This document shows, piece after piece, positions 7,796 to 28,590 of a DNA stretch of 28,590 nt (the first letter of the stretch is position 1; each line of letters starts with the position of its first letter). The notes under the pieces were generated by a model. The model had not been told where the DNA came from and searched no databases. It saw only the letters and a list, made by a program, of their open reading frames with translations. Both the position numbers and the translations under genes were made by a program. Source of the stretch: Herpetosiphon gulosus (GTDB lineage Bacteria; Chloroflexota; Chloroflexia; Chloroflexales; Herpetosiphonaceae). The stretch is taken from contig NZ_BAABRU010000004.1 of assembly GCF_039545135.1 (NCBI RefSeq), positions 386,427 through 415,016 on the forward strand. The letters run 5' to 3'.

Positions 7796-9007
7796 TTGCA
7801 TGTGCAACCGCAAGCGCGTTTTAGCTATTTGGTTTTATCATTTGGAACTCGGCTGATCTTAAGTTGTATTTTTACTGCCTCGATGCTCTATCGGATTCAA
7901 GTGCTCCAGCTCGATCCATTACAACTAGTGCTAGTTGGCACAATGCTTGAGGCCGCCGCCTTTGCCTTGGAAATTCCCACTGGAGTAATCGCTGATGTCT
8001 ATAGTCGGCGTTTGTCGGTCGTGTTGGGAGTAGCCTTTTTGGGCTTAGGAGCGCTCAGCGAGGTTTGGCTGGGCAGTTTTGTTGGTAGTTTGTTGGCGCA
8101 AGTTATTTGGGCCTTGGGCTATACCCTCATGAGCGGCGCGACCGAAGCTTGGATCACCGATGAGCTCGGAGTTGAAGCGGTTGAAGCGTTGTTTCTCAAG
8201 GCCGCCCAACTCAACAGCATCGCCAGCCTATTTGGCATCGGGCTGGGGGTGGTGTTGGCAAATCTTGGCTTGGTATGGCCGATAGTCAGCGGTGGTATAG
8301 CCTTGGTTGGTTTAGCTATCACTATACGTTGGTTCATGCCAGAAACCCAGTTTAGCCCTGCGCCAGCTGCTGAACGCCAAAGTTGGGGCCGCTTTGGCGC
8401 AACCTTCAGCAATGGTTGGCAAGCGGTACGGGGGCAACCAGTATTATTGAGTCTCATGCTGATGAGTGCCATGGCCGGAGCAGCTTCCGAGGGCTACGAT
8501 CGGCTGTGGGAAGCGCATTTGCTCAACAATATTGGCCTACCAGCATGGCTTGATCTCCAGCCAGTTACCTGGTTTGGGGCGATTGCTGCCTTAGGAACTT
8601 TAGCTAGTTTGTTGGCGGTTAGTGTGATTAAACGCTTGGCCAGCAACACCACCGAGCGCAGTATTTGGCTATTGCGTTGGCAATATGGCTTGTTGGCAGT
8701 GGGCTTGATTGGCTTGGCGATCGCCCAACAATTTATCATAGCTTTATTTTGGATTATGCTGATTCGAATGCTGCGCCAAAGCATTCAACCGCTGTATAGT
8801 GCTTGGCTCAATCGGCTGATTGAAAGTCGCAGCCGTGCGACAATTATTTCGATCAATAGCCAAGCTGATGCCTTTGGCCAGATTTTGGGCGGCCCAATCA
8901 TTGGTTTAATCGCTAGTCGCATGGGACTCCCCGCAGCGTTTGTGGCAGCAAGTTGCTGTTTATGGCCAATGTTGGTGTTATTACGACGGAGGCAACTAAA
9001 CCGCTAA
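7796..9007 (+). CDS. MFS transporter
   Basis: About 12 predicted hydrophobic spans with the MFS loop motif 'ADVYSRRLSV' between TM2 and TM3. The track ORF starts at TTG 7796. GTG 7802 (AGGAG at 7791-7795, 6-nt spacer) is the more plausible start. Confidence 0.8.
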   Translation: MHVQPQARFSYLVLSFGTRLILSCIFTASMLYRIQVLQLDPLQLVLVGTMLEAAAFALEIPTGVIADVYSRRLSVVLGVAFLGLGALSEVWLGSFVGSLLAQVIWALGYTLMSGATEAWITDELGVEAVEALFLKAAQLNSIASLFGIGLGVVLANLGLVWPIVSGGIALVGLAITIRWFMPETQFSPAPAAERQSWGRFGATFSNGWQAVRGQPVLLSLMLMSAMAGAASEGYDRLWEAHLLNNIGLPAWLDLQPVTWFGAIAALGTLASLLAVSVIKRLASNTTERSIWLLRWQYGLLAVGLIGLAIAQQFIIALFWIMLIRMLRQSIQPLYSAWLNRLIESRSRATIISINSQADAFGQILGGPIIGLIASRMGLPAAFVAASCCLWPMLVLLRRRQLNR

Positions 9008-9034: not shown

Positions 9035-9077
9035 ATCAGCCATGTGTGTAGTTCGCTGCACCATGGCTGATTTTTTT
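9035..9077 (+). terminator. Rho-independent terminator of the MFS gene
   Basis: Stem 'ATCAGCCATG' / 'CATGGCTGAT' (10 bp, 17-nt loop) followed by TTTTTTT, then 'AATTTTT'. Confidence 0.7.
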
Positions 9078-9222
9078 AATTTTTAGCGCCCACTAAAAAC
9101 CCAACAACTAAATAACAACTAAATAATTGTCGCATACGTGTCGCATGCCATTCACGGGATTGTCGCGCTGAGAAAGCGAAGCTGAGTTCAGTTCCAAATT
9201 GAACCAGCTTAGGAGGCTCCCA

Positions 9223-9681
9223 GTGTACAATTCATCAACGATTAGCCGCCGCATCGCTCTCGCCTTCGTTACCTTCGGCCTGATTTTTGCCAGTTTTGTT
9301 TACACTGCCCTCACAAGCAGCCAAATACCTCAATTTGATACACCAGCCGCCGCCAACACCGCTTGGCAATGGGGCGACATCGAAGGCATTACCGTCACCC
9401 AACAACTGCAAACTGCCCCACTCAACACCGCTTGGCAATGGGGCGACATCGAAGGCATTACCGTCACCCAGCAACTGCAAACCGCCCCGCTCAACACTGC
9501 TTGGCAATGGGGCGACATCGAAGGCATTACCGTCACCCAGCAACTGCAAACCGCCCCACTCAACACCGCTTGGCAATGGGGCGATATCGAAGGTATTACG
9601 GTCACCCAGCAACTACAAACCGCTCCACTCAACACCGCTTGGCAATGGGGCAACATCGAATCAAGCAAAGGGATGCTTTAG
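9223..9681 (+). CDS. Small secreted/membrane-anchored protein made of five tandem 23-aa repeats 'TAWQWGDIEGITVTQQLQTAPLN'
   Basis: AGGAGG at 9211-9216 lies 6 nt before GTG 9223. The track's TTG 9199 is in the same frame. The N-terminus 'ISRRIALAFVTFGLIFASFVYTALTSS' is a signal/anchor. It is followed by 4.4 copies of a 69-bp unit. Confidence 0.6.
   Translation: MYNSSTISRRIALAFVTFGLIFASFVYTALTSSQIPQFDTPAAANTAWQWGDIEGITVTQQLQTAPLNTAWQWGDIEGITVTQQLQTAPLNTAWQWGDIEGITVTQQLQTAPLNTAWQWGDIEGITVTQQLQTAPLNTAWQWGNIESSKGML
9355..9661 (+). repeat. 69-bp near-perfect tandem repeat (about 4.4 copies), in-frame inside the CDS
   Basis: The unit 'AACACCGCTTGGCAATGGGGCGACATCGAAGGCATTACCGTCACCCA(A/G)CAACTGCAAAC(T/C)GCCCC(A/G)CTC' differs only at a few synonymous positions between copies. 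Confidence 0.9.
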
Positions 9682-9700
9682 TTGAAGAGGAGAACGCGGC

Positions 9701-10333
9701 ATGGATACAACAACCTTTCCTGAATTTTGGCACTCCATCCCGCGTGACATTGCCGCTTTGATGCCAAACTCACCTGAATTAGCCTATGATGCCCATTTGA
9801 TCTTAAATTCGATCGCTCGCCATTCACATGAACTGTATCAACATTCGCTGCGGGTTGGCCACATGGCTTGGCATATGAGCCATAGCCTCGGCTTACCAAC
9901 CTATGAACGACAACAAATTTGGTTGGCAGCCCTGTTGCATGATTGTGGCAAAACCCGCATGCCGCGCAGTCTATTGTTCCGGCCAGCAGCAAACAGCCCA
10001 GTTTGGGAAGTTGCGCTCTATCAACAGCATGTCAACGAAGGCATTGAGGTATTACGCGCTTATCCCACCCTGCACTTGCTAATTCCCTTAGTGGCTGAGC
10101 ATCACGAACGGATCGACGGCACAGGCTTTCCACGTGGCAGCAAATACCCTGCCCGTAGCGCCCAAATTGTGGCGTTGGCCAATACGCTCGACCATTTGCG
10201 CACCCAACCAAACAGCCTTAGCCCCAATCTGCAAGGCTTAATCGATCAAGCAATTGATCAAGATTGGGATTCAGCAGTGGCCGCGACGGCGCTTAGTGCT
10301 TGGCAGCAAACGAAACTGGCTGAGGTTGGATAA
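9701..10333 (+). CDS. Stand-alone HD-GYP-like domain protein (variant 'GFP' instead of 'GYP')
   Basis: The HD metal motif 'ALLHDCGK' and 'EHHERIDGTGFPRG' correspond to the HD-GYP signature HHExxDGxGYP. It is 210 aa with no receiver or sensor domain. ATG at 9701. Confidence 0.7.
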   Translation: MDTTTFPEFWHSIPRDIAALMPNSPELAYDAHLILNSIARHSHELYQHSLRVGHMAWHMSHSLGLPTYERQQIWLAALLHDCGKTRMPRSLLFRPAANSPVWEVALYQQHVNEGIEVLRAYPTLHLLIPLVAEHHERIDGTGFPRGSKYPARSAQIVALANTLDHLRTQPNSLSPNLQGLIDQAIDQDWDSAVAATALSAWQQTKLAEVG

Positions 10334-11141
10334 TTGTCTCTTGCCACTCGGCGGCTTGTTGTCGCAAGCGACTCCGCACCAAGGCCAAGGCATCAGCCGA
10401 TTGATCTGCCGCAATCCAGCATCGCCCTAAACGTTGGGCCACCGCCGCCGTCGTGCCTGAACCACAACAAAGATCGGCTACCAGATCGCCCGAATTGCTT
10501 GCTGCGAGAATAATTCGCTCCAGCAAGCGTTCGGGCTTTTGGGTAGGGTAGCCCAAACGCTCGGCAGCCATGGGGTTGAGCATCGGAATATCCCAAACAT
10601 CATCGACGGGAGTGCCATCGGGATGCGGCAAATAACGCTTGCCAGCCGCCGAACGAATGCCTGCCTTGGCAAAACCACTACTGGCTTTATATGGTTGGCG
10701 CATCGCTTGCAAATTAAACGTCCAATGCTGCGGATGTTTGCTATACCACAAAATCGTATCGTGTTTATGCGAAAAGCTGCGCCGCGCTCGCCCGCCGCCG
10801 GTGTAATGCCAAATAATTTCGTTGCGAAAACACTCAAAGCCCCAAGTATGATCGAGCAACACTTTGGCATAATGCACCGCCCGCCGATCAAGGTGCAAAA
10901 ATAATGAGCCATGCTCAGCGACAATTTGGCGAGCAGCCAGCAAACGTTGCTCAAGCCAGGCCAAATATTCAGTTAAGCCACCTTGCCAGCGATCATCAAA
11001 AGCTCCAGCGCTATCGGCAAACACCCGACCAGCAGCAAACGGCGGATCAAGATACAACAGATCGATCGATTGGGGCGCGATTGAGCCGATAACATCGAAC
11101 ATTTCGCCTTGAATAAGCTGATTTGGTTGCTGCGAATTCAC
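10293..11141 (-). CDS. Beta-class N6-adenine/N4-cytosine DNA methyltransferase (N6_N4_Mtase family)
   Basis: Motif IV 'LDPPFAAG' lies near the N-terminus and AdoMet motif I 'DLCCGSGTTAAVA' near the C-terminus. This is the beta-class order IV...I. GTG start at 11141. The 3' end overlaps the convergent HD-GYP gene by about 41 nt. Confidence 0.85.
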   Translation of the reverse strand: MNSQQPNQLIQGEMFDVIGSIAPQSIDLLYLDPPFAAGRVFADSAGAFDDRWQGGLTEYLAWLEQRLLAARQIVAEHGSLFLHLDRRAVHYAKVLLDHTWGFECFRNEIIWHYTGGGRARRSFSHKHDTILWYSKHPQHWTFNLQAMRQPYKASSGFAKAGIRSAAGKRYLPHPDGTPVDDVWDIPMLNPMAAERLGYPTQKPERLLERIILAASNSGDLVADLCCGSGTTAAVAQRLGRCWIAADQSADALALVRSRLRQQAAEWQETIIQPQPVSFAAKH

Positions 11142-11157: not shown

Positions 11158-11922
11158 CTATGCTAATGATTGAATCAACAAATTGGCCAAGCGTTCGCGA
11201 CTGGTCGTTTCAAGTTGATAGAGATCTTGCTCAATATTGGTTTGGGTCATCAGCAAGCCATGGTGGCCTGCCTGCAATAAACTATATTCACGGCTCAACA
11301 CCTGCTGGCCTTGATACAGCACTGCATTGAAAATCGTGGTGGTATGCGGCTGGCTCAGCAGTTCGATCAAGCGGATGGCTGCTTCAGCGGAAACACCTGA
11401 ATTGCCCAAAGCTTGCAGGGCTGCTTGCTCCTCGCTTTGTTCAACTAAGCTACGGGCTTCGGCCAAAACATTGCTTTGAATATGGAAGCGCAAACTTAAC
11501 TCCGCACTTCCCGCATAGCCACACCAATCGAGGCTGTAATTTGCTAGCTGCTCCAACGAACCAAAGGCCTGCAAGCGCTGCATATCAGAATTGAGCAGCT
11601 CGTGGAAAACCACCGAATCGGCGTGTTTATGCCCAAATGCCTGCAACACCGACCCATTCCCTTGCACATGATGGATGATCAAACTGCGTTGGGGGTAAGC
11701 ACAGGTTGCGACCAAAGCCAGCGGGTCGCGGGCGATCATCAACATGCCATCTTGATCAGATTGAGCAAGCTGGCGTTGGCGTAATGCAGCTTCGCCAAGC
11801 TGGATTAATTGAGCATGCTCAGCAGGATTTTGAGCTGGGGCAACTCCCATAATGCTTGCTGCACTAACCACAGCACAAATTGTCACAATTTCAGCGCGGC
11901 TTAACTCAACCACTGTGTGCAT
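11158..11922 (-). CDS. Hypothetical protein, co-transcribed upstream of the methyltransferase
   Basis: A long ORF with no recognisable motifs. GGAGG lies 5 nt upstream of ATG 11922. The track start, TTG 11934, is in frame. Its stop is 16 nt before the MTase start. Confidence 0.5.
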   Translation of the reverse strand: MHTVVELSRAEIVTICAVVSAASIMGVAPAQNPAEHAQLIQLGEAALRQRQLAQSDQDGMLMIARDPLALVATCAYPQRSLIIHHVQGNGSVLQAFGHKHADSVVFHELLNSDMQRLQAFGSLEQLANYSLDWCGYAGSAELSLRFHIQSNVLAEARSLVEQSEEQAALQALGNSGVSAEAAIRLIELLSQPHTTTIFNAVLYQGQQVLSREYSLLQAGHHGLLMTQTNIEQDLYQLETTSRERLANLLIQSLA

Positions 11923-12031
11923 ACCAACCTCCAACGATCAATAAAGCTCACTCCATTGTAACGGCAAAATGGCTACGGCCATGCTAAAATGCGCTGAGCA
12001 TGCGACTCAACTAATACAAGGAGATGGTTTG

Positions 12032-16861: not shown

Positions 16862-17105
16862 CAAAAGGCAAAAGGCAGAAATCAAAAAGATGAGGGATGA
16901 AGTTGAGAACATAGAACATAGAGCAAAGAACATAGTCATTGGAGATCGGTTGCTGGAGATTGGGGATCGGTATTTAACGCAGAGGCGCAGAGAGTTAAGC
17001 ATGAGGGCTGAACGCAAAAGGCCGAAGTCAAAAATCAAAGAACAGAGAGCCTAGAACATAGAACATAGGCATTGAAGATTGGTTGCTGGGGGTTGGGGAT
17101 CGGAG
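16862..17105. repeat. Imperfect tandem duplication of a purine-rich element carrying (A)GAACATAG units (dnaK upstream region)
   Basis: Copy 1 runs about 16862-16990: 'ATCAAAAGGCAAAAG...GATGAGGGATGA...GAGAACATAGAACATAGAGCAAAGAACATAG...GGAGATCGGTTGCTGGAGATTGGGGATCGG'. Copy 2 runs about 17011-17105: '...TCAAAAATCAAAGAACAGAGAGCCTAGAACATAGAACATAGG...GAAGATTGGTTGCTGGGGGTTGGGGATCGG'. Related pieces occur at 340-375 and 2296-2372. Confidence 0.75.
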
Positions 17106-25710: not shown

Positions 25711-25745
25711 ATACCGCTAATTTTTAATTAGCGGTATATTTATTC
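25711..25745. terminator. Palindromic hairpin at the GC/AT composition boundary; likely bidirectional terminator
   Basis: 'ATACCGCTAATT'-TT-'AATTAGCGGTAT' is followed by 'ATTTATTCTAATT'. It lies 6 nt after the GT4 stop and immediately before the stop of the - strand island gene. Confidence 0.6.
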
Positions 25746-26618
25746 TAATTCGTAAGAGAGTATTTCAAAATAAATAAATGATAGCCAATTAAGAAAGTTC
25801 TCATTAACTATTCCAAAAAATTCATTAGGATCAACTATTGATCCTGAATCAAAACTCTCATTTTTCCCTGTTAAAAAATGAAAATATTTATTCCTAATAT
25901 TAATAATCATTTTAATAATATGTCTATTAGTTGTTTTTATTTGAGAGTAAGGGGTTTTAGAATACACATTAGCCTCTAATACTTTTTCTATAGTTTTATA
26001 ATAAATTTCACCCCACGAAGGATGTTGAGATAATATATTAAAATCTACTGTAACATCTAGATTTGTGTCTTCTGTAATATCTTTCATAAAATTATCAAAT
26101 ATAGTTAGTTCTTTTTTATCCTTTGCAAAAAAAATTTGTAGTTTTTCAAAGGTTCCTTCAAAATTCTTAGTTCTAGATGCCCACATTAACGGAAGACAAT
26201 AAGATATTCTTTCTAAAATTCTATAGATATGAACAAATGATGATACATGGTTATTTATTGATTTTTGATAAAAATAATGACAAAATTCAAAAAATATCTC
26301 TCTATGAAACATAAAATTCTTTGAACGACTTCTCATTACGGCTTTATCAAATTCTATAATTGTGAATGGATTAATAGAATTTTCAATAATATTCCATGAA
26401 AATCTTTCATTTTTCTTAAAAGGTAAAATGAAATAATTATTCCTTTGTTTTAATATCTTATTAGAGAATTCACATTTAATATCCAAAAATCCAGATAGCA
26501 ATCTAACATTTAATGCCTTATATATAATATTAGATGATATTTGTAACGTAAAAGGTAGTTTATTAGAAATTCTTGGCGTTAGCATTTCTATTGGTGTAAA
26601 TCTTAATTGAATAGACAT
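25740..26618 (-). CDS. Hypothetical protein, partner of the DUF262-like protein (possible HEPN-like or DUF1524-like effector; unassigned)
   Basis: A 292-aa ORF encoded in very low-GC DNA. Its ATG 26618 follows a GAGG SD that overlaps the stop of the upstream gene (8-nt gap). It contains 'IINIRNKYFHF' (R-N-x3-H) and 'SQHPSWGE'. No family is confidently recognisable. Confidence 0.55.
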   Translation of the reverse strand: MSIQLRFTPIEMLTPRISNKLPFTLQISSNIIYKALNVRLLSGFLDIKCEFSNKILKQRNNYFILPFKKNERFSWNIIENSINPFTIIEFDKAVMRSRSKNFMFHREIFFEFCHYFYQKSINNHVSSFVHIYRILERISYCLPLMWASRTKNFEGTFEKLQIFFAKDKKELTIFDNFMKDITEDTNLDVTVDFNILSQHPSWGEIYYKTIEKVLEANVYSKTPYSQIKTTNRHIIKMIINIRNKYFHFLTGKNESFDSGSIVDPNEFFGIVNENFLNWLSFIYFEILSYELE

Positions 26619-26626
26619 TTAAAACC

Positions 26627-27649
26627 TCATTCCATTTCATTTAATAGTGATAGCATTTCTATCTCTTCTTTATTGATAAAATTATTAAAATTACTAATAA
26701 AATAATCAACAGACTTCCTTCTTTGAGAACTTAATCTTATTTTTGATGTATCAAATCCAGAAAACGTTTTCTCAAATTCCTTAACGGTTTGAGAAAAATC
26801 ATTAGGATCAATATTTATTAAGTATTGAAAATTCCTTCTTATCCCGACACAGAATCCTATTAGATTATTAAGATTCTTAAACCATTCCATATTATACTCA
26901 TTATCTACAACCATTTTATATATCAATTTAGTAATTTCATTAAACTCTAAATCATCACTTGTTATATCAGAATTTATTATCTTATCAGTTATTAATTCAT
27001 TCATTTTACTTTCTATTATTTTCTGATTTTCAATATTAGTGGAAGCACTTAAAAATGCAATATATGCATTAATAATATCTGATTTATTAAAAGATTCCTT
27101 TAAATTAGATTTATCTTTTTCGTTTTTTAGCGATAGAGAAAGGTTATCAAAATTATATATATTACCCATCAGTATTTCTATTTGATGTCTAACTGTCATT
27201 GGTCTTTGGCCATTATTTAGTGTAATCATTCTATAGAGTAAATTATCCATCGATTCACAAATTATAATATTAAGAAATATTCTTTTATTTCTATTTACTT
27301 TTTCATTATCTTTAATTCTATCAAGTGTATTTAATCTTTGTATACCATCAAGAATAAAAGCGTTATGTATCTCTCTATTTACATATTCCTCTATTTGGTT
27401 ATCGTTGTAATTATTTATAATGTCAATTTTATCAATAAATGCAATTGTTAGTGGAGGCATAATGCACCCATCAATTATATCCTTTTCTAATCTTTTATAA
27501 AATCTAGCTGATTGTAATTTTCTTTGTATATCCAATTTGTTTATCAATTCAATTAAGTTATCTATAGCAAAACTATAATTTGTAGAACCTGTTATGAATT
27601 TCCCTTTAATTACATCATCATAATCAATAGAAGAAATTTTGATTGACAT
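26627..27649 (-). CDS. DUF262 / ParB-like (GmrS-N-terminal-type, 'DGQQR') domain protein
   Basis: A 340-aa protein. 'KLDIQRKLQSARFYKRLEKDIIDGCIMPPLTIAFI' matches the (P)xYQR...DI..G.PI..I block. 'AFILDGIQRLNTL' matches (I/L)DGQQRLTT. 'YRMITLNNGQRPMTVRHQIE' matches F..lN.G..L...E. GAGGTG lies 5 nt before ATG 27649. Confidence 0.65.
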   Translation of the reverse strand: MSIKISSIDYDDVIKGKFITGSTNYSFAIDNLIELINKLDIQRKLQSARFYKRLEKDIIDGCIMPPLTIAFIDKIDIINNYNDNQIEEYVNREIHNAFILDGIQRLNTLDRIKDNEKVNRNKRIFLNIIICESMDNLLYRMITLNNGQRPMTVRHQIEILMGNIYNFDNLSLSLKNEKDKSNLKESFNKSDIINAYIAFLSASTNIENQKIIESKMNELITDKIINSDITSDDLEFNEITKLIYKMVVDNEYNMEWFKNLNNLIGFCVGIRRNFQYLINIDPNDFSQTVKEFEKTFSGFDTSKIRLSSQRRKSVDYFISNFNNFINKEEIEMLSLLNEME

Positions 27650-27685
27650 AAATTCACCTCATAGTATTTATCTGAATACTTAAAT

Positions 27686-27714
27686 ACTATACACTAGAAT
27701 TTTTATATGTCTAC
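27686..27714 (-). promoter_or_regulatory. Candidate sigma70-like promoter for the island operon
   Basis: On the - strand, TAGACA (-35, complement of 27709-27714) is followed by a 17-nt spacer and TATAGT (-10, complement of 27686-27691). This is about 35 nt upstream of the DUF262 gene's SD. Confidence 0.3.
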
Positions 27715-27744
27715 AGGTTAATTATGTAAATTACGGAGTAAAGG

Positions 27745-28590
27745 CTTAAGATTGTATACTTACGCCTGATGTGAGTTAGGCATCGTTGATGACCGTAAAG
27801 GTAAGCACATCGATCCCAAATCGTGCCCGCAACACCGCTTTCACGACCAAATGCGTCACCTTGCTGGCAATGCGGGTTACCAAGCCTTCCACGGTTTTGG
27901 CCAACAAGCGCTCACTATTGCGTCCGGTATTTTGCAGTTCATGAAACGTCCCTTCGATCCGTTCACGGATCGACCCCAGCAGGGCATCAAATGGAGCGGG
28001 ATTCCGCCGTTGGTTCTGGCGTTTGGCCGTCCAGATGCGATTCTTGGTTGTGGCGCGAACATCGTGTTGCCACCGTTCACCCAGAAACCCTTTATCCGCC
28101 CACACGTCGGCATTGCTGATCTGGTCCAAAATTTCGTCCGCAGCGGCCCGCTCATCGGTATGGGCTGGGACGAGGTCATAGGCCACCGGAATGCCATCGA
28201 GGGTCGTGAGCATGACGAGTTTATACCCAAAATAATGCAGTTTGCGACTGACACAATAGCCATAGCTCGCGCTTCCGGCGAAATCGCTGCGGGTTTTCGG
28301 GCGCGTATAGCCCATCACGGGAATCGGTTTGGTATCAAGGATGACCTGTGGGCAGTCCACCATGGCCCATGACGTGAGCCATGAGCGGCGTAAGGGTTCG
28401 AGCAGACCACACAGGCGGCGGGCATGGCGATTGAATTGGCTTTGGTGGGGCAGGGTTGGAAACAGATCACCATGGGTTGCCCGCAGAAAGCCTAAGAAGC
28501 CGCGTTCGCTGGGAAAGGGGACGAGATCCATCGCCAACAGGATGGTCAGCACCTCGCTTGGCGCGAGGGCTGGCGCAGGCCCTGGGGAAG
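27745..28590 (-). mobile_element. IS982-family (IS5 superfamily) insertion sequence, 3' end and most of the transposase; truncated by the window edge
   Basis: Composition returns to about 55% GC at about 27745. The transposase ORF is at 27776-28590 and remains open to the window end. It contains 'ILDTKPIPV', 'SASYGYCVSRKLHYFGYKLVMLTTLDGIPVAYDLVPAHTDER' and 'WADKGFLG', which match the IS982 DDE blocks (IDSFPIP / GY.A.K..YFYG.KxH / DKGY). The terminal inverted repeat cannot be defined without the other end. Confidence 0.7.
27776..28590 (-). CDS. IS982-family DDE transposase (5' end beyond the window, or GTG start at 28552)
   Basis: See the mobile_element entry. The frame remains open upstream of the GTG at 28552 to the window end. 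Confidence 0.7.
   Translation of the reverse strand, partial: SPGPAPALAPSEVLTILLAMDLVPFPSERGFLGFLRATHGDLFPTLPHQSQFNRHARRLCGLLEPLRRSWLTSWAMVDCPQVILDTKPIPVMGYTRPKTRSDFAGSASYGYCVSRKLHYFGYKLVMLTTLDGIPVAYDLVPAHTDERAAADEILDQISNADVWADKGFLGERWQHDVRATTKNRIWTAKRQNQRRNPAPFDALLGSIRERIEGTFHELQNTGRNSERLLAKTVEGLVTRIASKVTHLVVKAVLRARFGIDVLTFTVINDA

Follow-up and report, generated by a model that had tools for sequence, protein, structure and literature searches.

What does a small, apparently exported protein made of near-identical tandem units do beside a gene for an HD-GYP-type protein? This question is raised by a stretch of 28,590 nucleotides from Herpetosiphon gulosus (contig NZ_BAABRU010000004.1, positions 386,427–415,016), here called the window, in which a gene that we designate pep lies immediately upstream of such a gene. 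All coordinates are those of the window and refer to its forward strand unless the reverse strand is named. The repeats of pep belong to a real gene, in which every unit is under selection at the protein level, and sequence comparison indicates that pep and its neighbor form an undescribed two-gene module restricted to the Herpetosiphonaceae, where its distribution is patchy. Tentatively, we suggest that pep specifies an exported multi-copy pro-peptide, signal-like in nature, which is co-expressed with the HD-GYP enzyme. An architecture of signal peptide plus tandem short repeats is known; the motif, its linkage to an HD-GYP gene and the promoter array described below are new.

The pep array and its conserved motif

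The pep open reading frame (ORF; 9223–9681, 152 aa) extends from a GTG at 9223 to a TAG stop codon at 9681. This GTG is the best start, with the ribosome-binding site AGGAGG (9211–9216) 6 nt upstream, a site kept in all Herpetosiphon loci; the orthologs likewise begin M(Y/N)NSS...RR. The product is made up of MYNSSTISRR, a hydrophobic stretch of 20 residues, four copies of NTAWQWGDIEGITVTQQLQTAPL and a terminal variant, NTAWQWGNIESSKGML. The four full 69-bp (23-aa) units (9355–9630) are identical at the protein level, and the variant unit with the stop codon occupies 9631–9681, its D-to-N variant being present in every Herpetosiphon ortholog. Tandem Repeats Finder delimits the array to 9354–9660 (period 69, 4.4 copies, 94% matches, score 544); the other arrays in the window score 48 or less, a gap of about ten-fold. 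A reading of the DNA made earlier without database searches (the sequence-only reading) had described such an array of near-identical units, and this description holds, its unit TAWQWGDIEGITVTQQLQTAPLN being the NTAWQWGDIEGITVTQQLQTAPL unit with the register shifted by one residue.

Nucleotide differences among the four full units are found at nine sites, and 9/9 are third-position and synonymous. As synonymous changes account for 23% of random single-base changes in the unit, this outcome has a chance probability of about 2e-6, and we conclude from it that the frame is translated and under purifying selection. Between full units the nonsynonymous divergence (dN) is 0; the synonymous divergence (dS) is 0.14–0.22 among units 1–3 and 0.52–0.66 between these and unit 4. 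Two other accounts of the array were dropped. The strictly synonymous variation argues for selection on the protein and not for a series of DNA-level binding sites. A Trp-codon leader peptide, or attenuator, of the HD-GYP gene was rejected because the signal sequence and the non-Trp residues are conserved as protein and the ORF is far too long.

The near-identity of the units had also been taken as a sign of very recent expansion or contraction, or of gene conversion, and this part of the sequence-only reading was not borne out. The window is closest to H. aurantiacus DSM 785, in which the neighboring proteins are 92–99% identical, the flanking genes show a dS of 0.30–0.41, and the pep ortholog is the hypothetical protein Haur_0320. 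Since dS between units reaches 0.14–0.66, it is purifying selection that has kept the units identical as protein; recent duplication does not account for it, and the split from DSM 785 predates one unit only, the extra one among units 1–3. Outside the aurantiacus clade the units of a gene mostly differ from one another at 9–16 of their 69 nt, and between several species each unit can be matched to its ortholog (unit 1 of giganteus and unit 1 of NSE202, for example, have five differences), so that in most of these species the units are old and individually maintained. Smaller differences (4–8 nt) occur in the MFD metagenome-assembled genome (MAG) and between two geysericola units. Units 1–3 of the aurantiacus clade are the sole units which look younger.

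The suggestion that the repeat belongs to no recognized family was borne out. No family match to pep was found in Pfam, NCBIfam, PHROGs or PADLOC, and CW_binding_1, the choline/cell-wall-binding aromatic repeat of about 20 aa, gave none at E ≤ 0.01 in Pfam. In a sequence search of the PDB all matches to pep were designed repeat proteins, and none had a passing stretch. HMMER was run exhaustively against 1.84 billion representative proteins, and its 27 matches besides the Herpetosiphon ortholog were all spurious: they are eukaryotic repeat proteins which follow the QLxxQTAP periodicity of the spacer, and translated CRISPR arrays (e.g., FQFQWGAIEG). In the protein representative library, P0032 and P0044, which carry FQFQWGAIEG, FNSSEVRLK and ISIPVRCDWR repeats with variable spacers, are three-frame translations of CRISPR arrays miscalled as genes.

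When 185,579 species genomes were scanned for two in-frame WQWGD motifs, six Herpetosiphon genomes were recovered with one locus each; the sole match outside this genus (Sphaerobacter, L012) was out of frame and inside a PstS lipoprotein gene. A metagenome scan for pep yielded one further Herpetosiphon locus only. Two additional lineages, both metagenomic, came from other routes: the second (P0004 cluster, loci L001–L008) by protein search, the third (L021) with the conserved neighboring methyltransferase as anchor. Orthologs of pep are found in only these three Herpetosiphonaceae lineages, where the gene order is invariably major facilitator superfamily (MFS) transporter, pep, HD-GYP gene, convergent methyltransferase. 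In the second lineage the L001 protein (89 aa) consists of MTTFSRIRRIILIGSLLSIIASAAAFGGGTHNT followed by four units of the form (T/V)AWQWGDVEAAPR(M/L/A), and the L008 protein (75 aa) is built in the same way with three units. The L021 protein (64 aa) consists of MNAFTTLRRLLVVLVLLIVLMVATLGNSGGSRQS followed by VAWQWGDVEAAPPM and VAWQWGDVEAAPRATA.

Copy number was counted as WQWG motifs, the terminal one included. There are five in the window, four in all six Herpetosiphon genome representatives, three in two short metagenome contigs, four or three in the second lineage and two in the third. The supposed variability in copy number is supported by this range of 2–5, although the forms in which two full units precede the terminal variant were seen on contigs of 504–2760 nt assembled from short reads, where the array may have collapsed.

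Residues 1–33 (9223–9321) constitute a putative export signal composed of MYNSSTISRR, the 20-residue hydrophobic core IALAFVTFGLIFASFVYTAL and TSS. A layout of n-region, h-region and small residues can be read in all three lineages, with possible signal-peptidase sites between TSS and Q in Herpetosiphon, between ...IIASA and AAF in L001 and between ...VATLG and NS in L021. L001 and L021 carry more classical signals than Herpetosiphon, and in the AlphaFold model of the 89-aa L001 protein the N-terminal helix is confident, with a predicted local distance difference test score (pLDDT) of 70–85. The N-terminus of pep thus looks like a secretion signal or anchor, as had been proposed.

What has been conserved beyond this signal is a short stretch. 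In 25 full Herpetosiphon units from eight genomes, T2, W4, Q5, W6, G7, D8, I9, E10, I12, T13, T15, L18, Q19 and P22 are invariant, with synonymous codon variation at 9/14 of these positions. The unit is 23 aa long in Herpetosiphon versus 14 aa in the two other lineages (TAWQWGDVEAAPRM and VAWQWGDVEAAPPM), whose proteins are 64–89 aa overall with 2–4 units. Throughout, the core AWQWGD(I/V)E is unchanged, as is the AP two residues ahead of the next unit, whereas identity to the other lineages is 30–31% for the HD-GYP partner, 48% for the MFS protein and about 70% for the methyltransferase. Because the core is invariant while the length of the unit drops from 23 aa to 14 aa and the copies number from two to five, and because the 14-aa forms are predicted to be disordered, the functional unit appears to be a short linear motif and not a folded repeat domain, presumably displayed or released outside the cell.

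The structural models nevertheless leave some room for a different explanation, namely that the pep product stays in one piece and acts outside the cytoplasm as a repeat protein, anchored in the membrane through its uncleaved N-terminal helix or else secreted as a whole. The 23-aa unit would then form a β-hairpin or β-arch with W4/W6 and T13/T15 on one face as a Trp ladder. Such a protein could offer a multivalent platform to which cell wall, sheath or prey polysaccharide binds, or be a small fiber subunit, with the HD-GYP gene merely co-regulated. AlphaFold does predict, for the 152-aa protein, a helix at residues 5–31 and, in each unit, a pair of strands (TAWQWG and ITVTQQ) joined by a turn. 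The alternating invariant residues of the spacer (I-T-x-T) are strand-like and would pair with the W-x-W strand, and a hydrophobic segment of 20 residues has the length needed to span the membrane as an anchor. Confidence in this model is low, however (repeats pLDDT 55–65; mean pLDDT 53; predicted template modeling score, pTM, 0.46), and Foldseek found no fold match at E ≤ 0.001. The best non-significant matches are β-solenoids (CsgA, bactofilin, FapC and ice-binding proteins; CsgA with E 0.16 and a template modeling score, TM, of 0.12). In the 89-aa relative the repeats are modeled as coil with a pLDDT of about 38 and no secondary structure, so that the 14-aa forms, which have no second strand, are predicted to be disordered after the signal-type helix; the two-unit tail of L021, 28 residues in total, cannot be a repeat fold or build a solenoid. 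Of the β-solenoid or Trp ladder which had been put forward for the repeat, there remains a low-confidence hint for the 23-aa form and none for the 14-aa forms.

The comparison with curli-type proteins leads in the same direction. CsgA and FapC are small Sec-exported proteins, as pep is predicted to be, and like it they have 3–5 imperfect repeats of about 20–23 aa, rich in Q, T, N, G and aromatic residues and variable in number. However, pep has no Curlin_rpt match in Pfam or NCBIfam, no S-x5-Q-x-G-x-G-N consensus and no linked nucleator or secretion partner genes, and its 14-aa, two-copy relatives cannot take the CsgA/FapC fold. With neither Curlin, CW_binding nor any other repeat family matching, and with a copy number which varies freely, we regard an intact repeat protein as possible but rather unlikely, though it is the main rival to the pro-peptide. 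Were it true, pep would encode a surface protein of a common sort, specific to its lineage and only modestly interesting.

The HD-GYP gene and the promoter of pep

The gene downstream of pep (9701–10333) encodes a stand-alone HD-GYP-type protein of 210 aa with the motif HHERIDGTGFP. It was identified as possessing the Pfam motifs HD_5 (E 4e-18; 66 bits versus a cut-off of 27.2) and HD (50.8 versus 22), and its PDB matches are HD-GYP phosphodiesterases (4mcw [8e-13], 5z7c, 4r8z and 3tm8; range 8e-13 to 2e-7). Judged by these matches it is a genuine member of the HD-GYP family. As in PmGH (4mcw), PA4781 (4r8z), V-cGAP3 (5z7c) and Bd1817 (3tm8), which share the set H...HD...K...H...HHE...DGxG(F/Y)P, the Herpetosiphon protein possesses H, HD, K, H, HHE and DGTGFP; all ligand positions aligned with 4mcw are kept, but GYP reads GFP. 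It differs from these enzymes in standing alone, without REC or any other sensor domain, and in having a degenerate active site in one lineage. No membrane segment is present, and HD_5/HD are the only domains. The L021 protein reads HQE...DGEGYP, that is, HQ replaces HH and GYP is retained; the L001 protein lacks the third His, the HH pair and DGxGYP. Phosphodiesterase catalysis may therefore not be required in every lineage. The dN/dS of the gene is 0.10–0.18. Its product belongs to an isolated lineage (the nearest outside homologs are 34–37% identical), and a homolog search with it returned only orthologs and generic HD-GYPs, with no wider family of HD protein plus small ORF.

Co-transcription of the two genes, suspected from their spacing in the window, is strongly implied by the comparison. 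The intergenic spacer is 19 nt (9682–9700) and includes the ribosome-binding site of the HD-GYP gene (GAGGAG, 9688–9693); no terminator was found in it. The gap is 19 nt in Herpetosiphon, 17 nt in L001 and 26 nt in L021, lineages so diverged that identity of the HD-GYP proteins falls to 30%. Moreover, pep and the HD-GYP gene are present or absent together. Both are missing in the sister lineage L017 (Herpetosiphonaceae, methyltransferase 69% identical), where the MFS and methyltransferase genes flank a non-coding gap of 1032 nt in which no remnant of either was found. It is the short gap in three diverged lineages, the lack of a terminator and this joint absence that argue for a two-gene operon.

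This linkage invites the explanation, offered by the sequence-only reading, that pep is a surface or periplasmic sensor-like partner of the HD-GYP protein. On this model pep would physically control that protein; in a variant of it, the HD-GYP protein would be a cytoplasmic receptor binding the re-imported peptide. Conserved operon linkage and joint gain or loss are in keeping with such an arrangement, and the loss of several metal-ligand and GYP residues in L001 is compatible with a binding rather than a catalytic role. The topology is unfavorable, however: the repeats are predicted to be extracellular and only about 10 residues of pep cytoplasmic, while the HD-GYP protein has neither a membrane segment nor a known peptide-binding domain, and none of the tetratricopeptide repeat (TPR) domains of RRNPP receptors. 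An HD-GYP protein which diverges down to 30% identity beside an invariant core is the opposite of a tightly co-adapted pair. The proposal is unsupported, and we think a sensor or receptor arrangement very improbable.

Upstream of pep there are four 11-bp direct repeats arranged head-to-tail (TGTCGCAtacg TGTCGCAtgcc ATTCACGggat TGTCGCGctga, 9128–9171). An array of four such repeats lies 94–97 nt ahead of the start codon in Herpetosiphon, L001 and L021. In L001 the repeats read TGTCGCATGAG TGTCGCATGGT GTTCGCGGCGC TGTCGTGAGCC, and in L021 TGTCGCAcaat TGTCGCActgg TCTCGCAcgca TGTCGCAtcgc; 7–8 nt downstream of the fourth repeat stands a candidate −10 sequence, TTATAG in L021 and AATATG in L001. Of the 16 loci with pep, 15 have a single exact copy of the double heptamer, always upstream of pep, and the sixteenth (L014) has it with one mismatch; the exact form was found in 0/7 loci lacking pep. 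At the pep promoter it is the only match without mismatch in the window, and none was found elsewhere in about 150 kb.

The promoter has no recognizable −35 element, its place being taken by the four TGTCGCA heptamers at 11-bp spacing. Heptamers which replace the −35 element at a spacing of one helical turn are the signature of activators of the OmpR/PhoB/SARP type, and the array is a putative site for a winged-helix activator of this kind. The pho boxes of PhoB/PhoP and the SARP heptamer repeats share with it the four heptamer direct repeats, the 11-bp period and the location at the −35 position; TGTCGCA itself is not known as a described box. No DNA-binding regulator is encoded near pep. A comparable layout was noticed in the Sphaerobacter MAG (L012, 2096–2140), where the pstS promoter, downstream of a PhoR-like kinase gene, carries CTTAATAgccg CTTAATCgatc CCGCACGgccg GCTAACCtccg. 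The array resembles pho boxes, here in a member of the Chloroflexota, and is laid out as in the pep promoter with a different heptamer (CTTAAT).

Between the array and the ribosome-binding site the 5' untranslated region (5'-UTR) contains a predicted stem-loop (9179–9210; −16.2 kcal/mol, z −2.0) which ends at the ribosome-binding site. Its equivalent in L001 has −14.8 kcal/mol and z −2.45. The stem sequence differs among the window, DSM 785 and L001 and the pairing is retained, which is moderate evidence that the hairpin has been preserved across lineages; Rfam gave no match in the window. In the first 43 codons of pep (9223–9351) interspecies dS is 0.07–0.31, versus 0.30–1.3 in the neighboring genes. 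In this small sample the low dS suggests constraint on the 5' region of the mRNA.

Possible roles of the pep product

Returning to the exported pro-peptide, we picture the following sequence of events. The product of pep would be a Sec-type exported pre-pro-protein whose conserved payload is limited to (T/V)AWQWGD(I/V)E and the ..AP.. spacer, in 2–5 tandem copies. Once an activator acting at the TGTCGCA repeats is switched on, the cell would export the repeat protein, from which, after removal of the signal peptide, one or more Trp-rich acidic peptides would be released, possibly by cutting between units. The HD-GYP enzyme made at the same time, cytoplasmic and stand-alone, would lower the level of cyclic di-GMP (c-di-GMP). 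Outside the cell the peptide would most likely act as a signal of the autoinducer kind, and the number of copies would determine how large a dose each translation event yields, as in the Phr pre-peptides with a repeated autoinducer or in the yeast alpha-factor precursor. We infer export, signal-peptide cleavage, peptide release or processing, the signalling role and the phosphodiesterase activity of the partner. What speaks for this scheme is the selection on every unit, the conservation of a motif in place of a domain, a core that has outlived the similarity of its neighbors, the signal-type N-terminus in three lineages, the tight linkage to the HD-GYP gene, the promoter repeats specific to pep and the precedent of repeated pre-peptides.

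Exported bacterial pre-peptides which contain identical or diverged repeats of the mature signal do exist (PMC5199041). The Phr pre-peptides of the Bacillus Rap-Phr systems resemble pep in being small, with an N-terminal secretion signal (a putative one in pep) and a short putative mature peptide in tandem, the copies being identical or slightly diverged and their number differing between close relatives; a cytoplasmic signalling protein is encoded adjacently (PMC5199041). They differ in the partner, which is a TPR Rap phosphatase whereas that of pep has HD_5/HD domains only, with no TPR receptor adjacent. The Phr signal is a penta- or hexapeptide which diversifies fast, whereas the core of pep (8–9 aa) is invariant across genera. 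In the pep operon, moreover, the peptide gene comes first, the hosts are Chloroflexota and there is no sequence similarity to Phr. The yeast alpha-factor precursor (MFalpha1) is a eukaryotic parallel; it contains four copies of WHWLQLKPGQPMY and is processed by Kex2 and Ste13 at KR-EA spacers. It shares with pep a signal sequence (putative in pep), tandem copies of a Trp-x-Trp peptide and the spacers, and copy number acts in it as dosage, as it would in pep; pep has no KR-EA sites, and the two are not homologous. By analogy, then, pep may work like these precursors, a view we hold with reserve, but it is not a member of either family.

Several observations weigh against an exported pro-peptide. 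In none of the lineages is pep linked to a gene for a processing protease, a peptide exporter, a receptor kinase or an Opp-type importer, and no conserved dibasic or other known cleavage site was found between its units. Peptide pheromones usually diversify fast, and the core of pep is invariant across genera. The Herpetosiphon h-region, with its 20 residues, could be an uncleaved anchor. The Herpetosiphon spacer of 13 aa is conserved too (I12, T13, T15, L18, Q19 and P22, with a β-strand-like alternation), and on the structural models it is as compatible with a folded hairpin as with a linker. Lastly, a literature search on the pep locus tags and on Herpetosiphon combined with HD-GYP found the locus mentioned nowhere.

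If pep does give rise to an exported peptide, filamentous gliding Chloroflexota would possess a private extracellular peptide signal coupled to second-messenger control, and behaviors such as gliding, aggregation and predation might be subject to it. To our knowledge, no extracellular peptide signal of this kind is known for the Chloroflexota. A more ambitious form of the pro-peptide proposal is a complete module for peptide cell-cell signalling, in which a multi-copy Trp-rich pheromone precursor would be auto-induced through a winged-helix regulator bound to the TGTCGCA repeats and tied to c-di-GMP turnover by co-transcription with the HD-GYP gene, possibly with the HD-GYP protein as intracellular receptor. 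We give this form little chance; if true it would be the first peptide quorum-sensing system described in the Chloroflexota, as well as the first case of a peptide signal linked directly to an HD-GYP protein. The locus is in any event a clean natural experiment, in which an 8-residue motif has been frozen while unit length, copy number and partner enzyme have changed; for this reason we take the motif, and not a fold, to be the object of selection. Peptides of the sequence AWQWGD(I/V)E should be very specific reagents for experiments.

The left neighbor of pep bears upon a further explanation. The gene at 7796–9007 encodes a TetA(P)-like MFS transporter (Pfam MFS_1; NCBIfam TetA(P)-like), and an MFS gene occupies this position in all three lineages (48% identical in L002; also in L021). 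Herpetosiphon is a predator, and pep might be a secreted Trp-rich effector or antimicrobial peptide directed at prey or competitors, with the MFS pump serving for export or self-protection. The invariant core would suit a conserved target better than a private pheromone. Yet the peptides are acidic, without cationic or amphipathic character, no immunity gene was found, and the linkage of pep is to a signalling enzyme and not to a toxin-type partner. In addition, the MFS gene has a strong intrinsic terminator of its own (9035–9078), read from the sequence as the stem ATCAGCCATG...CATGGCTGAT followed by seven T. It was passed over by the automatic terminator scan on account of its loop of >8 nt, and it is kept in all Herpetosiphon loci, where only its loop has changed. 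This terminator indicates that the MFS gene is a transcription unit separate from pep, and in L017 the gene persists without pep. An effector or antimicrobial role therefore appears improbable to us.

A multi-core precursor of a ribosomally synthesized and post-translationally modified peptide (RiPP) was considered as well. Enzymes encoded at other places in the genome would then cross-link the W-Q-W cores or modify them in some other way, as happens in the darobactin and streptide classes. The repetition of conserved cores between spacers that vary recalls such precursors, and W-x-W is the cross-linked core of darobactin. Against this, no gene for a radical-SAM, YcaO, ATP-grasp or P450 protein, a lanthionine synthetase or a peptidase was found in the window or on the contigs of the relatives, and the genome scan gave a single locus per genome without a linked maturase. 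The N-terminus of pep, furthermore, looks like a hydrophobic secretion signal, which is atypical as a RiPP leader. This is accordingly the explanation in which we place least trust.

Neighboring genes and other features

The right neighbor of the operon, on the reverse strand and convergent with it, is an N6/N4 DNA methyltransferase gene (10293–11141; Pfam N6_N4_Mtase). Its 3' end overlaps that of the HD-GYP gene by 41 nt in the window (10293–10333), by 24 nt in L001 and by 4 nt in L021. The methyltransferase is 67–71% identical in the other lineages, and it is found without pep and the HD-GYP gene in L017, L018, L019, L022 and L023; far better conserved than the HD-GYP gene, it is a solitary gene in many Herpetosiphonaceae. 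That the HD-GYP protein might be its restriction partner was rejected, as this protein matches HD-GYP enzymes and not nucleases and the methyltransferase is common without it. With Cas3 the HD-GYP protein shares no more than the short HD motif.

Directly upstream of the methyltransferase gene a 258-aa ORF (11158–11934, reverse strand) has no family match beyond a sub-threshold one to EspG (E 0.009). It is kept in the five Herpetosiphon loci which extend far enough (78–95%) and is absent in the other lineages. At the end of the window a block of low GC content (25740–28552; 24–31% versus about 50% elsewhere) contains two ORFs without Pfam match (25740–26618 and 26627–27649, both reverse strand), adjoined by a DDE transposase gene (27776–28552, reverse strand). 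This block was probably acquired horizontally.

In the Herpetosiphonaceae relative L018 (ENA contig_2 of ERZ25070581, 5167–7935) about 15 small genes of 33–49 aa stand in tandem. They share the leader MKKLTIRKAETLKTTAAFYAGSCG, have hypervariable tails rich in Gly, Pro and Cys, and are followed by a Peptidase_M50 gene. The leader weakly resembles the CLI_3235 bacteriocin-precursor family (E 0.06, below the cut-off), and the whole looks like a multi-precursor bacteriocin or RiPP array.

Arrays of a different heptamer, AGAACAT, with about four copies each, are present in the window at 343–372, 16906–16935 and 17039–17068; they are intergenic and located upstream of panB and between dnaK and a hybrid histidine kinase gene. 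Heptamer arrays of CCTCTTT or CCTACTT occur upstream of the pep promoter in L001 and L005. All of these may be dispersed short tandem repeat elements of this family.

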